Shown piece by piece: positions 2,970 to 8,039 of a stretch of DNA of 40,540 nucleotides. Source of the DNA: a virus; the IMG/VR virus record IMGVR_UViG_3300029770_000021; one strand, given 5' to 3'. The stretch's first letter is position 1; the number at the start of each line of letters is the position of its first letter. The position numbers and the translations under genes are program-made. The notes below the pieces were generated by a model. That model searched no databases. It was given only the letters and a program-made list of their open reading frames with translations, and was not told the DNA's origin.

Positions 2970-3371
2970 ATGCTGAACAAAATTATTGTGATGGGTCGGT
3001 TGACCAGAGACCCTGAATTGCGCCGCACCAACAGCGGCAACGCTGTAACCTCCTTCACCGTTGCGGTCGATCGGGATTTCAAAACCCAGTCCGGCGAGAA
3101 GGAAACGGATTTCATCGACGTGGTGGCATGGCGCAACACCGCTGAATTTGTAAGCAAGTACTTCTCTAAGGGCCGTATGGCCGTGGTGGAGGGTCGCCTG
3201 CAGCTCCGTGACTGGACGGACAAGGACGGCAACAAACGCCGCACCGCCGAGATCGTGGCCGACAGCGTGTACTTTGGCGATTCCAAGCGGGACGGCGGGG
3301 ACGCGGCGCAGAGCGAACCGCAGGGCGGTTTCAGTGAGATCGAGGATGATGAATTATCTTTGCCGTTTTAG
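2970..3371 (+). CDS. ssb: Single-stranded DNA-binding protein
   Basis: MLNKIIVMGRLTRDPELRRT..., an OB-fold consensus (FIDVVAWRNTAEF, GRLQLRDWTDKDG), and an acidic tail EDDELSLPF. GGGGGA lies 6 nt before ATG 2970 (ATG 2964 is an alternative). Confidence 0.93.
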   Translation: MLNKIIVMGRLTRDPELRRTNSGNAVTSFTVAVDRDFKTQSGEKETDFIDVVAWRNTAEFVSKYFSKGRMAVVEGRLQLRDWTDKDGNKRRTAEIVADSVYFGDSKRDGGDAAQSEPQGGFSEIEDDELSLPF

Positions 3372-3381
3372 GAGCAAGTAT

Positions 3382-3924
3382 ATGGAGCAATGGAGAAATA
3401 TCCCCGGATATGAGGGGATTTATCAGGCATCAAATATTGGGAGAATAAGAAGTTCTCCCAATAAAGTAACGTCAAACGCAAAATATACCCGTCGGGTATG
3501 GAAAACTCGTGTTTTGAAGCCAAAAGCCGAAGGGCGTGGGGATCTGCGAGTGTCCCTTTGGAAAGATGGGAAATGTAAAGATTTTCTCGTTGCCCGGCTT
3601 GTTGCTATGGCATGGTGCCAAGGATACGGCGAAAATATGACGGTTAATCATATTGATGGGAATTTCTTAAATAATGTTTCGACTAATTTAGAGTGGGTGA
3701 CAAGGGGTGAAAACGTTAGAAAAGGCTTTGAAATTGGGCTTTATTCAAATATTCAGAAACGCGTTCAGCTTTCTGGCGAAGATGGGGAAATCCTCTTATT
3801 TAATTCAATGGCAGGTGCATCTCGATATTTAGGAAGAAGCAATGGCTATTTATCAAATGCGATTATGAAAGGCCATATTGTTCGAGATTTGAGAGGGCAG
3901 ATTTTTTCCTCAACGTTAATTTAA
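3382..3924 (+). CDS. HNH homing endonuclease (NUMOD4 + HNH_3-like)
   Basis: WRNIPGYEGIYQASNIGRIRS (NUMOD4-like) and VNHIDGNFLNNVSTNLEWVTRGEN (HNH). The segment is visibly more AT-rich than its flanks. AGGAG lies 7 nt upstream. Confidence 0.85.
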   Translation: MEQWRNIPGYEGIYQASNIGRIRSSPNKVTSNAKYTRRVWKTRVLKPKAEGRGDLRVSLWKDGKCKDFLVARLVAMAWCQGYGENMTVNHIDGNFLNNVSTNLEWVTRGENVRKGFEIGLYSNIQKRVQLSGEDGEILLFNSMAGASRYLGRSNGYLSNAIMKGHIVRDLRGQIFSSTLI

Positions 3925-5210: not shown

Positions 5211-5325
5211 TATTTACGGCGAGGACACGCAGGGCACAAAGGAGGCGGTGGCCATGCTGCTGGAGCCTCTGGGCCGCGTCCGCGTGGTCAGCGTCATTAC
5301 CAACGGCAAGGAGGAAAAGCGGTGA
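5191..5325 (+). CDS. Small hypothetical protein (44 aa)
   Basis: MMRIVVDIYGEDTQGTKEAVAMLLEPLGRVRVVSVITNGKEEKR. The 3' end overlaps the GTG of the methyltransferase. Weak SD. Confidence 0.3.
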   Translation: MMRIVVDIYGEDTQGTKEAVAMLLEPLGRVRVVSVITNGKEEKR

Positions 5326-6017
5326 ACGTAGCCTATAACATGGACTGCATGGAGTATATGCGGACGCTGCAGAACAAGGCGTTTGATCTGGCTGTGGTAG
5401 ACCCTCCATATTTCAGCGGGCCGGAGCGGCGCGGATATTATGGCTGCAAGGTCAGCAAAATCGGTGTGCACAGAGACTACCCCATATCGCCGAAGTGGGA
5501 TATTCCGACACGTGAATATTTCGATGAGTTGGAACGTGTCGCAAAGCGCTATATCGTTTGGGGTTGCAACTATTTCGACTATCACTTTGCGCCGGGGCGC
5601 ATTGTTTGGAACAAGTGCAACGAGGGCAGCTCCTTTAGCGATTGCGAGATCGCAGCCACAAACTGCCATGACAGCGTACGGCTTTTCCACTACATGTGGA
5701 ATGGAATGATGCAGGGCAAAAGCATCGCAGAGGGGTTTATCCAGCAAGGGAATAAGGCGATGAACGAGCAGCGCATTCATCCGACGCAGAAGCCTGTGGC
5801 GCTTTACGTGTGGTTGCTTCAGAAGTACGCCAAGCCCGGAGACAAGATACTGGACACCCACTTAGGCAGCGGCAGCAGCCGCATAGCCGCCTATGATCTT
5901 GGATTTGATTTTGCTGGATGCGAGATCGACCCTCACTATTTTCAGGCGCAGGAAAAGCGCTTTGCGGAACACACGGCGCAGATCAGTTTGTTCACTTGTG
6001 AGGAGGAAAAACGATGA
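5322..6017 (+). CDS. DNA N6-adenine/N4-cytosine methyltransferase (beta-class motif order)
   Basis: DPPY (VVDPPYFSG), then HPTQKPVALYVWLL and ILDTHLGSGSS. AAGGAGG lies 7 nt before GTG 5322. Confidence 0.9.
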   Translation: MNVAYNMDCMEYMRTLQNKAFDLAVVDPPYFSGPERRGYYGCKVSKIGVHRDYPISPKWDIPTREYFDELERVAKRYIVWGCNYFDYHFAPGRIVWNKCNEGSSFSDCEIAATNCHDSVRLFHYMWNGMMQGKSIAEGFIQQGNKAMNEQRIHPTQKPVALYVWLLQKYAKPGDKILDTHLGSGSSRIAAYDLGFDFAGCEIDPHYFQAQEKRFAEHTAQISLFTCEEEKR

Positions 6018-6421
6018 AGGTTACATTCACGGTCCCCGGTATTCCGGTGGGCAAGGGCCGCCCACGTTTTATGAAAAACGGCCACACCACACCCCGCAGA
6101 AAACGCGGGACTACGAGGACAAGGTGATCCAGTGCTGGAAGTGCCAAAGTGGGAAAGGTTTTGCGGCGGGTATCCCGCTGACGGCCGCCGTCACGGCGTT
6201 CTTCACGGTGCCCAAGAGCACGTCAAAGAAAAAGGCCGCTGCGATGGACGGAACACCCCACATTAAGCGACCCTGACGCCGACAACGTGGCGAAGGCCAT
6301 TCTGGACGCGTTGAACGGCCACGCCTACAACGATGACAGCGCAATCGCACTGCTGATGGTGCGAAAGTATCAGACAACTGGAGCCTCCCGCGTGGAGGTC
6401 ATCATTGAGGAGGCAGAATGA
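6014..6421 (+). pseudogene. rusA: RusA-like Holliday junction resolvase interrupted by two compensating frameshifts
   Basis: Frame 2 reads MKVTFTVPGIPVGKGRPRFMKNGHT to about 6088. Frame 1 reads TPQKTRDYEDKVIQCW...KKKAAAMDGTPHIKRP to 6273. Frame 2 resumes with DADNVAKAILDALNGHAYNDDSAIALLMVRKYQ...EEAE and a stop at 6419-6421. The joined sequence reads like an intact RusA. Confidence 0.8.
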
Positions 6422-6744
6422 TGGATGCTGTGGAGTTTTTGGAACAACTGAAAAAACGCAGTAAAAGCAACCCGGATTATTACGGTGAAGAACTTAATAT
6501 TGCACATATTGAACCTATATCACTCGTTAGTCAAGTCGAACAGTGGGCCGCAGAGCACCCCGTCAAAACCAGGCAGAGCGTGTTTTTGGAGATGTTTCCC
6601 AATGCACCAATATTTCCAGATACCGGGATCGTCAAAATGTCTCCTTGCGAAGTGGATGCAGTATTGCGTGGAAATTGCCCCGGCGTGGGATGTTGCCTGG
6701 AGTGCCGGAAGAAATTCTGGCTTACGGAGGTGGAGGACGCATGA
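6418..6744 (+). CDS. Hypothetical protein (Cys-rich C-terminus)
   Basis: 108 aa with TRQSVFLEMFPNAP...CPGVGCCLECRKKFW. Coupled at both ends. Confidence 0.65.
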   Translation: MMDAVEFLEQLKKRSKSNPDYYGEELNIAHIEPISLVSQVEQWAAEHPVKTRQSVFLEMFPNAPIFPDTGIVKMSPCEVDAVLRGNCPGVGCCLECRKKFWLTEVEDA

Positions 6745-8039
6745 AAGCGTTGATCGGCGGAAGCCCCTGCACACGTTGGAGCATCGCACAGACGAAGAAC
6801 CGGGAGACCGAGGCCAGCGGTATCGGCTGGGAGATATTTCTAAATTACCGCATCGCACGGGATAAGTACCAGCCGGACTATTTTTTGTATGAAAACAACA
6901 AGTCCATGTCGCCCGCTATCCGGGCGCAGATCACGGCGGAGTTAGGCGTGGAGCCTGTCCTGATTAACAGCGCCCTGGTGAGCGCACAAAACCGTCAGCG
7001 CCTTTACTGGGTTGGCAAGCGTGAGCCGGACGGCACATACAGTCAGGTGGCAGTGGAGCAGCCGGAGGACAGGGGTATTTTGCTGCGGGATATTCTGGAG
7101 ACTTCGACCAGCAAAAAAGGATATGCACTGGACCCAACGCACGCAGAAGTCCTGAATATGAATCCAAGCGGGCACGGAATGAATGGTGCAGTTATCCACT
7201 GTGATGGAAAGAGCCGAACACTCACGACGAACAAGGGAGAGGGTCCAAAAATCATAACCCCTATCCGCATTGGGACCATCGAGAATGACGCGAAGAACCC
7301 GGACCATGACAGCCAGCAATACCGTGTTTACAGCCCGGATGGCAAAAGTGTGACCCTCTGCGGTAACGGCGGTGGCGTGGGTGCAAAAACTGGGCTTTAT
7401 GCCGTGCCGGTGCCGGTAAATGAAACCGCCGAGGGGAAAGCCCAATGTCTACGCGCTACCTACTACAAAGACGGGATCCGCAATCTGGTGGGGAATGCCG
7501 TGGACCGGAAAACGTGCGTGGCGATGCCTGTCGGGATGGCAGCGGGGCCGAAAAGCATACTTGTAGTTACGGCTGCGGGAAAGTCGGTGCCTGTTTACGA
7601 GGTTAGAAATGGGAAAATCGCCATCAAGGGCGAGGAGTACCCCATCAAACTGGCCGACGGCTTTTACATTATTCGCAAGTTGACCGTGACGGAATGTAAA
7701 CGCCTCCAGACCGTGCCGGAGGAGTATGTTTTCCCGGTGAGCGACACTCAGGCATACAAAATGCTGGGCAACGGCTGGACGGTGGACGTGATCGTCCATA
7801 TCATGAGCCACTTTGAAGGGCTGACGGCGGAGCCGGTGGAAGTGCTGTCGATGTATGACGGCATGAGCTGCGGTCATATCGCACTGGACAAGCTGGGCGC
7901 GGAGATCTCCGCCTACTATGCAACCGAGATCGACAAGTACGCCATCCAAACCACACAGCACAATTACCCGGACACTGTACAACTGGGCGACGCGTTTCAG
8001 GTGCGGGACGATGATTGGAGATTGGGGGAGGAACTATGA
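6741..8039 (+). CDS. DNA (cytosine-5) methyltransferase with circularly permuted motif order (IV-X, then I-III)
   Basis: SD GGAGGTGGAGGA. In order: MKALIGGSPC (IV), LYENN (VI), QNRQRLYW (VIII), QQYRVYSPDGKSVTLCGNGGG (target recognition domain, TRD), RKLTVTECKRLQTVP (IX), GNGWTVDVIVHI (X), then VEVLSMYDGMSCG (I), YATEIDKYA (II), QLGDAF (III), stop. Confidence 0.85.
   Translation: MKALIGGSPCTRWSIAQTKNRETEASGIGWEIFLNYRIARDKYQPDYFLYENNKSMSPAIRAQITAELGVEPVLINSALVSAQNRQRLYWVGKREPDGTYSQVAVEQPEDRGILLRDILETSTSKKGYALDPTHAEVLNMNPSGHGMNGAVIHCDGKSRTLTTNKGEGPKIITPIRIGTIENDAKNPDHDSQQYRVYSPDGKSVTLCGNGGGVGAKTGLYAVPVPVNETAEGKAQCLRATYYKDGIRNLVGNAVDRKTCVAMPVGMAAGPKSILVVTAAGKSVPVYEVRNGKIAIKGEEYPIKLADGFYIIRKLTVTECKRLQTVPEEYVFPVSDTQAYKMLGNGWTVDVIVHIMSHFEGLTAEPVEVLSMYDGMSCGHIALDKLGAEISAYYATEIDKYAIQTTQHNYPDTVQLGDAFQVRDDDWRLGEEL

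Follow-up and report, generated by a model that had tools for sequence, protein, structure and literature searches.

A candidate phage C5-cytosine methyltransferase with a naturally permuted motif order, IV to X followed by I to III

C5-cytosine DNA methyltransferases are a textbook case of a fixed motif order, running from motif I to motif X. In a screen of 20,677 REBASE C5 enzymes for proteins with motif X before motif I, Albert et al. (2018; PMC5944983) recovered 27 permuted enzymes, all of them opened in the variable region such that motifs IX and X come first (the M.BssHII type). The same study reported that engineered permutants opened between motifs II and III, or else between III and IV, are active, while stating that these types "do not seem to occur" naturally. 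For M.HaeIII, a route of duplication followed by trimming has been retraced in laboratory work, as summarized in PMC5944983, and a 2020 review (PMC7544214) gives one alternative permutation for enzymes that form 5-methylcytosine. Here we describe an open reading frame (ORF) at positions 6741 to 8039 on the plus strand of IMG/VR virus record IMGVR_UViG_3300029770_000021 (40,540 nucleotides, the whole of which is referred to below as the window), the product of which carries motifs IV through X ahead of motifs I through III. A first-pass annotation of the same DNA had read this order from the letters and had proposed that the topology might be new. Indeed, no earlier description of a natural order of IV to X followed by I to III was found in full-text searches; because REBASE and subscription journals lay outside the scope of those searches, the word "undescribed" is used with that qualification.

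The longest open frame in the ORF list runs from 6543 to 8039 and has GTG at its start. The start of the methyltransferase was assigned to the ATG at 6741, which is equivalent to the start of the family homologues (M-K/R-x-LIGGSPC) and overlaps, in the form ATGA, the TGA stop codon (6742 to 6744) of an ORF at 6418 to 6744. The first-pass annotation had placed the start here, behind a strong Shine-Dalgarno sequence, and this held, with two GGAGG-type sites upstream and a start conserved across the family. The resulting protein has 432 amino acids plus the stop. The features of the gene are as follows.

6726 to 6737, plus strand: ribosome-binding region, with GGAGG at 6726 to 6730 and GGAGGA at 6732 to 6737, both 5' of the ATG at 6741 (read from the sequence).
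6741 to 8039, plus strand: complete coding sequence of the permuted C5 methyltransferase (ORF list; Pfam PF00145, E = 3.1e-28; identical protein in three samples).
6750 to 6773, plus strand: motif IV, LIGGSPCT (residues 4 to 11), strand beta4 and catalytic Pro9-Cys10 at the extreme N-terminus; DNMT3 has VIGGSPCN.
6882 to 6902, plus strand: motif VI, FLYENNK (residues 48 to 54), with catalytic Glu51; aligned to DNMT3 ENV.
6981 to 7010, plus strand: motif VIII, SAQNRQRLYW (residues 81 to 90); aligned to DNMT3 SAAHRARYFW.
7011 to 7664, plus strand: variable or target-recognition region (TRD; residues 91 to 308), from the family alignment and the model.
7674 to 7718, plus strand: motif IX, RKLTVTECKRLQTVP (residues 312 to 326); aligned to M.HhaI residues 272 to 315 and to DNMT3.
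7767 to 7805, plus strand: motif X, GNGWTVDVIVHIM (residues 343 to 355), a helix and part of the S-adenosylmethionine (AdoMet) site; from phmmer and the C-terminal alignments.
7806 to 7835, plus strand: junction linker, SHFEGLTAEP (residues 356 to 365), from the ancestral C-terminus to the ancestral N-terminus.
7836 to 7874, plus strand: motif I, VEVLSMYDGMSCG (residues 366 to 378), strand beta1 and the AdoMet-binding glycine loop; DNMT3 residues 4 to 20 are IRVLSLFDGIATG.
7914 to 7937, plus strand: motif II, YYATEIDK (residues 392 to 399), with acidic Glu396; aligned to DNMT3 YIASEV.
7980 to 7997, plus strand: motif III, QLGDAF (residues 414 to 419); residues 1 to 56 of the BC669P3 enzyme end in IQLGDV.
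7998 to 8039, plus strand: new C-terminal tail, QVRDDDWRLGEEL, and the stop; Trp426 is conserved family-wide.

In alignments to DNMT3, M.HhaI, and DRM2, the order along the protein was IV-VI-VIII-TRD-IX-X-I-II-III and not the canonical linear order of I to X. The match to PF00145 (99.6 bits against a cut-off of 22) placed protein residues 3 to 356 on profile positions 64 to 320 of 324, so that the gene begins in the middle of the profile. When the protein was compared with PDB chains by phmmer, the query was divided into three pieces on DNMT3A/B/C: query residues 4 to 92 (motifs IV to VIII) fell on chain residues 76 to 169, residues 314 to 356 (motifs IX and X) on 231 to 275, and residues 364 to 408 (motifs I and II) on 4 to 50. 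The first-pass annotation had anticipated partial profile hits in inverted order; here, such pieces were obtained with phmmer on the DNMT3 chains. Searched alone, the last 124 residues matched the C-terminal end of M.HhaI (272 to 315) first and the N-terminal start of DNMT3 (4 to 50) next; with tobacco and Arabidopsis DRM, which are also permuted, the same segment gave an unbroken alignment of 91 residues spanning the junction from motif X to motif I. The canonical Dmt enzyme of Bacteroides phage BC669P3 was then located on the window by tblastn, with its residues 63 to 365 at nucleotides 6738 to 7814 and its residues 1 to 56 at nucleotides 7836 to 8003 (59% identity). No further significant match to BC669P3 Dmt was found by tblastn anywhere in the window, and a search of the window for stray motifs I to III upstream, motifs IV to X downstream, or a second source of motifs I to III returned nothing below an E value of about 0.04. 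Since the BC669P3 enzyme is covered once, in two swapped pieces, these results indicated a clean circular permutation. Canonical relatives end near the junction site (BC669P3 with ...GNGWTVKVIEHILSHLFKN and a stop) and begin with MNVLSLFDG; by these alignments, the chain is opened in the III/IV loop, and motif X is joined to motif I through about 10 linker residues. The breakpoint and the identity of the C-terminal segment as motifs I to III were therefore as the first-pass annotation had described them.

The residues needed for a C5 methyltransferase were found at the expected places, with Pro9-Cys10, Glu51-Asn52-Asn53, and Gln83/Arg85/Arg87 aligned to DNMT3. Conservation was assessed across 129 aligned permuted proteins, the most distant of them at about 52% identity. 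G7, S8, P9, and C10 of motif IV are invariant (model strand at residues 2 to 7), as are E51, N52, and N53 of motif VI, the third residue of that motif being Asn in place of Val; in motif VIII, Q83 and R85 are invariant and R87 is nearly so. The AdoMet-binding motifs I, II, III, and X are present as LSMYDGMSCG, ATEID, QLGDAF, and GNGWTV, aligned to DNMT3 and M.HhaI. Invariant positions here are S370, D373, G374, and G378 of motif I (model strand 366 to 371; predicted local distance difference test [pLDDT] score above 85), E396 of motif II (model strand 389 to 395), G416 of motif III, with D417 nearly invariant, and G343, G345, and W346 of motif X (model helix 348 to 355); in motif IX, R312, E318, and R321 are invariant. 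The protein is probably enzymatically active. The best PDB sequence matches are DNMT3A/B/C and not bacterial enzymes, and family members carry the JGI name "DNA (cytosine-5)-methyltransferase 3A."

Two further regions of the protein are characteristic of the family. Trp426 (nucleotides 8016 to 8018), in the new C-terminal tail, is invariant in the 129 sequences and lies 9 residues past the motif III Asp (GDAFQVRxxxW). Most permuted family members end 2 to 5 residues past this Trp, and canonical relatives have "..DFTxYxGxD" at its position, running into beta4; Trp426 may clasp the new C-terminus to the domain. In the family alignment, the TRD has a mosaic build, in which modules with one xGK[SA]xxL core each are inserted, deleted, or duplicated. 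Its length ranges from 142 to 440 amino acids in 341 members, and the commonest number of cores is three, which is also the number in the window protein (the "TL-like" cores DGKSRTL, DGKSVTL, and EGKAQCL). Three such TRD-like modules suggest that more than one target sequence might be recognized.

Three homologue searches were made in a collection of 5.8 billion proteins, and counts refer to matches listed, as clusters at 90% identity. Among these, the order IV-VIII, IX-X, I-III was present in 120 of 120, in 118 of 118, and in 108 of 109 new matches; the single exception in the last set joins a permuted and a canonical enzyme in one protein. The start M-x-x-LIGGSPC and the permuted order are common to at least 342 full-length clusters, in which motif IV lies no more than 12 residues from the first residue. 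In an exhaustive search of representatives of clusters at 50% identity, the best 150 comprised 67 permuted proteins, 44 canonical ones, and 2 tandem fusions, the rest being fragments. The first-pass annotation had called the PCT of motif IV and the ENN of motif VI unusual. Neither is peculiar to this gene or to permutation: among the nearest canonical-order relatives, PCT occurs in 35 of 38 and ENN in 36 of 38; on these counts both are clade-wide traits, unlinked to permutation. The possibility that PCT and ENN are adaptations to permutation was rejected, as they are equally frequent in canonical relatives.

To place the permuted proteins among their relatives, the cores were re-ordered and concatenated (99 representatives, 241 columns) and a neighbor-joining tree was built. 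All 60 permuted representatives fell in one clade, adjoining canonical-order relatives. By parsimony, one change of topology was needed with all columns and one with motifs I to III alone, compared to about 31 with shuffled labels. It is this comparison, bootstrap support being modest, that points to one or very few origins of the permuted topology, followed by wide diversification. Within the same PCT/ENN subfamily there are also single-chain fusions of the form I-X-I-X (P0126, 962 amino acids; P0222, 618 amino acids), and one protein (P0389, 787 amino acids) consists of a permuted enzyme followed by a canonical one in a single chain. P0126, P0222, and P0389 are the kind of intermediate that is needed by duplication and trimming, and not direct ancestors of the window gene. 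The first-pass annotation had proposed an in-frame tandem duplication followed by trimming of both ends, and had asked for unpermuted or tandem relatives; both kinds were found in the subfamily and the single change on the tree agrees with the proposal, but no permutation intermediate was found in the lineage of the window phage itself. Two other relatives (P0281 and P0282, 787 amino acids) are permuted enzymes with an added Dam-type adenine-methylase domain, PF02086, which, judged by motif coordinates, should lie after motif III.

An AlphaFold2 model was built on the 129-sequence alignment and reached a mean pLDDT of 74 and a predicted template modeling (pTM) score of 0.79; a run with only 32 close homologues gave a mean pLDDT of 35 and an unusable model. 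The pLDDT was about 85 to 98 in the N-terminal block (residues 1 to 120) and the C-terminal block (350 to 420), and confidence was low only in two TRD modules (127 to 171 and 227 to 270). From the N-terminus, the model has beta4 (2 to 7), a helix, beta5 (47 to 53), a helix, beta6, and beta7 (86 to 94), followed by the TRD; after the TRD come the helices of motifs IX and X, beta1 (366 to 371), a helix, beta2 (389 to 395), a helix, and beta3. This order of strands and helices is the order predicted from the permutation. Foldseek returned M.HhaI (E = 1e-9), DNMT3A/B/C, M.HaeIII, and DRM, all with probability 1.00, and, in BFVD, phage "cytosine specific methyltransferases." With these top matches and the pTM score, the model has the two-domain fold of M.HhaI. 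Of the structural check proposed in the first-pass annotation, the match to M.HhaI was therefore obtained; reconstitution of the AdoMet pocket was judged from model confidence.

The explanation that we favor, and hold to be likely, is that the gene encodes a working, single-chain, naturally permuted C5 methyltransferase of a gut phage, and that the permuted topology most likely arose by fusion or duplication followed by trimming. Its Rossmann-type catalytic domain would be formed by a circularly permuted chain. The chain would start with beta4 and the Pro-Cys of motif IV, pass through motifs VI and VIII, the long modular TRD, and motifs IX and X, and then lead through the linker of about 10 residues past motif X into beta1 to beta3, the AdoMet-binding part formed by motifs I to III. 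The arrangement in space would be that of M.HhaI or DNMT3, with the C-terminal I-III piece next to the N-terminal IV-VIII piece, and with this packing the usual chemistry could follow: Cys10 would attack C6, Glu51 would protonate N3, and the methyl group would move from AdoMet. The topology would have arisen once or very few times within the DNMT3-like PCT/ENN phage clade, most likely by end-to-end fusion or duplication of two methylase genes, after which the first I-III and the last IV-X would have been lost, and the permuted form would have diversified widely afterwards.

Several points weigh against parts of this explanation. The template modeling score to M.HhaI is 0.57, a value to be read with the fact that Foldseek aligns sequentially and cannot score a permuted superposition. 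Contact between the I-III and IV-VIII pieces and closure of the AdoMet pocket are predictions drawn from pTM and pLDDT. Moreover, Albert et al. (PMC5944983) suggested that permutants broken near motifs II and III might bind AdoMet less well. In the tree, bootstrap support for the exact permuted split was only 83 of 200, so that strict monophyly of the permuted clade was not upheld, and three changes of topology were needed with motifs IV to X alone, which would allow for more than one origin or for recombination. The halves of the tandem fusions P0126 and P0222 are 46 to 49% identical to each other; these proteins are fusions of diverged paralogues and not recent duplicates, and they come from other phage lineages. 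Recognition of more than one target is a conjecture drawn from a count of short motifs and the modular alignment.

A different route to the same protein, which we consider unlikely, is fission of the gene at the III/IV boundary, re-ordering, and re-fusion, possibly with help from an intein in motif IV. Inteins are present in many relatives, both canonical (P0148, P0149, P0158, and P0174) and permuted (P0249, P0244, P0177, and P0137). They contain Hint and Intein_splicing domains, often with LAGLIDADG, and measure 150 to 380 amino acids. The insertion site lies exactly between the Pro and the Cys of motif IV (GGSP|C..intein..HN|CT(Y/H)WS), and the catalytic cysteine of the methylase is thus also the +1 nucleophile of the intein; in permuted members the N-extein has only about 9 to 10 residues (M-x-K-x-LIGGSP). 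Literature searches on inteins in C5 methylases returned nothing relevant. Such an intein, about 8 residues from the breakpoint, would fit with fission, as would the existence of split C5 methylase genes in phages, an example being the two adjacent ORFs of Bacteroides phage F2 (MT806186). There, a canonical-order relative at 1495 to 2989 is labelled as two methyltransferase genes, with motifs I to VIII in 1495 to 2304 and the end of the TRD plus motifs IX and X in 2405 to 2989, a layout that reflects either natural splitting in the variable region or a frameshift. The intein site, however, differs from the breakpoint, and permuted proteins retain LIGGSP upstream of it; as they begin about 8 residues before the Pro|Cys site, the intein site was rejected as the main cause of the breakpoint. 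No intein remnant was detected beside the window gene by Pfam or tblastn, and none of about 500 sequences was a family member split at III/IV, whereas the I-X-I-X tandem fusions expected under the duplication route do exist.

A single-chain enzyme is also preferred over an obligate domain-swapped dimer, in which motifs I to III of one subunit would complete motifs IV to X of the other; we regard such a dimer as quite unlikely. The new termini do fall between beta1 and beta4, at the sheet's central switch point, amino-methylases of class beta, with the same motif order, are reported as dimers (PMC7544214), and DNMT3-type enzymes, the closest solved relatives by sequence, work as oligomers. The monomer was nevertheless modeled confidently as a single unit, the linker from X to I is no longer than that of DRM, which has an intrachain fold in its solved structures, and engineered single-chain permutants of this type are active (PMC5944983).

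It might also be supposed that the gene is an inactive relic, a truncated IV-X methylase fused by chance to a following I-III segment and retained in a non-enzymatic or DNA-binding role. Deletions between adjacent methylase genes could give such fusions, tandem fusions do occur in the family, and the score with NCBIfam TIGR00675 (dcm), 87.4 bits, is below the cut-off of 100.65. That score is accounted for by alignment of the profile to the IV-X part only, the motif order being permuted, and the window holds no other source of motifs I to III. Hundreds of clusters from many phages and prophages, with identities as low as about 45%, retain this architecture with its ends and its catalytic residues. 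Identity to the window protein in 59 permuted representatives was 61% for motifs I to III, 58% for IV to VIII, and 66% for IX and X, such that the I-III piece evolves no faster than the other parts of the core. Since the relocated piece is as conserved as the others, the permuted gene is, by this measure, not a decaying fusion remnant, and the relic explanation is very improbable. An assembly or gene-calling artefact, arising for instance if a contig was mis-joined or if a circular genome was opened within the gene, deserves hardly any credence: related contigs are opened at another point close to the methyltransferase gene (the genome thus probably being circularly permuted or terminally redundant), but the ORF sits inside the window between continuous flanks, the identical protein occurs on contigs of about 40 kb in three independent human-gut assemblies of different projects (ENA ERZ914736, ENA ERZ27262172, and JGI 3300045988), and the same order is found within long scaffolds of cultured bacteria, such as one of 813 kb from Oscillibacter sp. 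1-3, and in the complete GenBank phage genome nd4 (OR777945, 1498 to 3174). The recovery of an identical protein from three independent gut assemblies establishes that the permuted order is not an artefact. The G+C content is even across the methyltransferase gene and its neighbors. The nd4 homologue has a C-terminal extension of about 130 amino acids and is labelled "hypothetical protein."

The window represents a phage genome of about 40 kb, with genes for a large serine recombinase, a terminase, an SPP1-type portal, and a minor capsid protein, and its source is probably a temperate, siphovirus-type gut phage. The methyltransferase belongs to an early or replication module; upstream of it, this module encodes an exonuclease, NinB, a replication initiator, an HNH endonuclease, and an N6/N4 methylase. 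Around the methyltransferase lie the N6/N4 methylase gene, a RusA-like gene that is broken, and small ORFs with no match in Pfam or PHROG. Two of the neighboring features are as follows.

5322 to 6017, plus strand: N6/N4 amino-methyltransferase of class-beta order (PF01555, 3.1e-16; PHROG "DNA methyltransferase," 2.8e-54).
6418 to 6744, plus strand: Cys-rich ORF of 108 amino acids (ORF list; gene call in three independent contigs).

The ORF at 5322 to 6017 has VVDPPY at its N-terminus and the AdoMet loop near its C-terminus; the two methylases of the phage thus belong to unrelated families and both have the catalytic motif first. The Cys-rich ORF at 6418 to 6744, which contains ..CPGVGCCLECRKKFW.., gave no Pfam or PHROG match and is apparently translationally coupled to the methyltransferase. 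In homologues P0067 and P0080, a Cys-rich N-terminal extension of about 95 to 100 amino acids (MKLCDRCRVPGC...) is fused ahead of LIGGSPC. The RusA-like Holliday-junction resolvase gene (6011 to 6421) is apparently broken by two frameshifts, such that the N-terminal part, MKVTFTVPGIPVGKGRPRF, and the C-terminal part, DPDADNVAKAILDALNG, share a frame that differs from that of the middle part, ..YTPQKTRDYEDKVIQ..TPHIKRP; at the equivalent place the independent contig L007 has a 44-amino-acid product with a RusA match, and the other two contigs have no gene call. The HNH endonuclease ORF (3208 to 3924) adjoins the replication initiator. In the near-identical contigs L005 to L007 its place is vacant or taken by a different NUMOD4/HNH gene, which is the behavior expected of a mobile homing endonuclease.

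Prophage copies were found in members of the Oscillospiraceae (Oscillibacter, Dysosmobacter, Flavonifractor, and Pseudoflavonifractor), in Acutalibacter, Anaerotruncus, and Robinsoniella, and in other Clostridia, and at least 69 of the best 80 loci are permuted within a single ORF. Cultured isolates with such copies include Oscillibacter sp. 1-3, Flavonifractor sp. An92, Pseudoflavonifractor sp. 524-17, Acutalibacter caecimuris M00118, Anaerotruncus colihominis JM4-15, and Robinsoniella peoriensis CCUG 48729. From these copies, the hosts of the phage are probably Oscillospiraceae or other Clostridia. No restriction enzyme was recognized near the methyltransferase with Pfam or PHROG, although small ORFs without a match could hide a nuclease. 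A pair of methylases in the early region without a nuclease partner is the usual arrangement of phage self-protection methylases, and by analogy the enzyme most likely serves to methylate the DNA of the phage itself, which would thereby escape host restriction.

On balance, we think it somewhat more probable than the opposite that this is the first recognized natural class of C5 enzymes ordered IV to X and then I to III, and that it forms a large and old phage and prophage family of gut Clostridia, apparently of single origin. If so, an order hitherto seen in C5 enzymes only in laboratory evolution and design would be a second natural topology, abundant in gut phages, and permutations that are viable in directed evolution or design would also be used in nature. 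The extant tandem-fusion relatives would then illustrate duplication and trimming, and canonical, tandem-fused, and permuted relatives in one clade would offer natural material for the permutation-by-duplication model. Annotation tools that depend on motif order under-call permuted genes, as seen in the dcm score below cut-off, in the label given to the nd4 homologue, and in the JGI name that refers to DNMT3A. As a consequence, the 5-methylcytosine methylomes of phages and prophages in abundant gut Clostridia may be partly unassigned. The cultured isolates with prophage copies make the family open to direct testing.

Among known enzymes, the closest are canonical, DNMT3-like PCT/ENN phage proteins, namely, the metagenomic P0133 and P0144 and, more distantly, BC669P3 Dmt and gp007 of Proteus phage Saba. 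They share with the window protein all ten motifs, the variants LS(L/M)(F/Y)DG, PCT, ENN, QNRxR, and GNGWT, 50 to 70% identity in core segments, the same phage setting, and the same intein site, but they have motifs I to III at the N-terminus, whereas the window protein has them past motif X. Bacillus phages SPR, phi3T, rho11s, and H2 carry multispecific orphan C5 methylases with tandem TRD modules between motifs VIII and IX. The modular TRD mosaic of the window family recalls this arrangement, as a lead only; the SPR/phi3T-type enzymes are canonical in order.

The first-pass annotation had set the breakpoint apart from the natural permutations already known, and this distinction proved correct. 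With Pro-Cys at residues 9 and 10 and a chain that ends 13 residues past motif III, the window protein differs from both natural types. The M.BssHII type ("Type H": M.BssHII, M.Alw26I, M2.Eco31I, M.Esp3I, and M2.BsaI) is likewise natural, prokaryotic, and permuted, with X joined to I; its break and N-terminus, however, lie in the variable region, giving IX-X followed by I-VIII (PMC5944983), whereas the window protein begins with motif IV. Enzymes of that type belong to Type IIS or IIP restriction-modification systems, in contrast to the window protein, which is apparently a phage orphan. Plant DRM (ntDRM, 4onj; DRM2, 7l4c) is DNMT3-like and naturally permuted as well, and is related by the unbroken 91-residue alignment across X to I and by structural match. 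DRM nevertheless has VI-X before I-IV/V, with Pro-Cys in the C-terminal part (PMC3934875), and is eukaryotic, with UBA domains. On a more speculative note, the unbroken alignment leaves room for descent of DRM and the phage family from one kind of fused DNMT3-like ancestor that was trimmed differently in each.

The class-beta amino-methyltransferases (M.PvuII, M.RsrI, CcrM, and M.EcoGII) have the same linear order as the window protein, with motif IV, the TRD, and then motif I (PMC7544214), and by the definition given there (IV...TRD...X-I-III) the window protein has class-beta order. Class-beta enzymes act with (D/N/S)PP(Y/F) on an exocyclic amine, whereas the window protein would act with Pro-Cys on C5; its motif IV is GSPC, the only Pfam family matched is PF00145 (not PF01555 or PF02384), and there is no family-level homology. 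By these comparisons, the likeness to class beta is one of topology only, and the TRD orientation and obligate dimerization described for class beta (PMC7544214) are not implied for the window protein. A natural C5 enzyme with class-beta order would help to separate chain topology from family history in such questions as dependence on dimers and weaker AdoMet binding.

The laboratory permutants are the nearest in design. In those of M.HaeIII (Peisajovich et al. 2006, as described in PMC5944983) and in the "Type B/C" permutants of M.MpeI and M.SssI (PMC5944983), the N-terminus lies at II/III or III/IV, X is joined directly to I, and the enzymes are active. The same route, tandem duplication and then trimming, is proposed for the laboratory permutants and for the window family. 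The former are engineered; the window protein is natural, widespread, and broken at III/IV, and it is most likely their natural counterpart, set within a large phage and prophage family.

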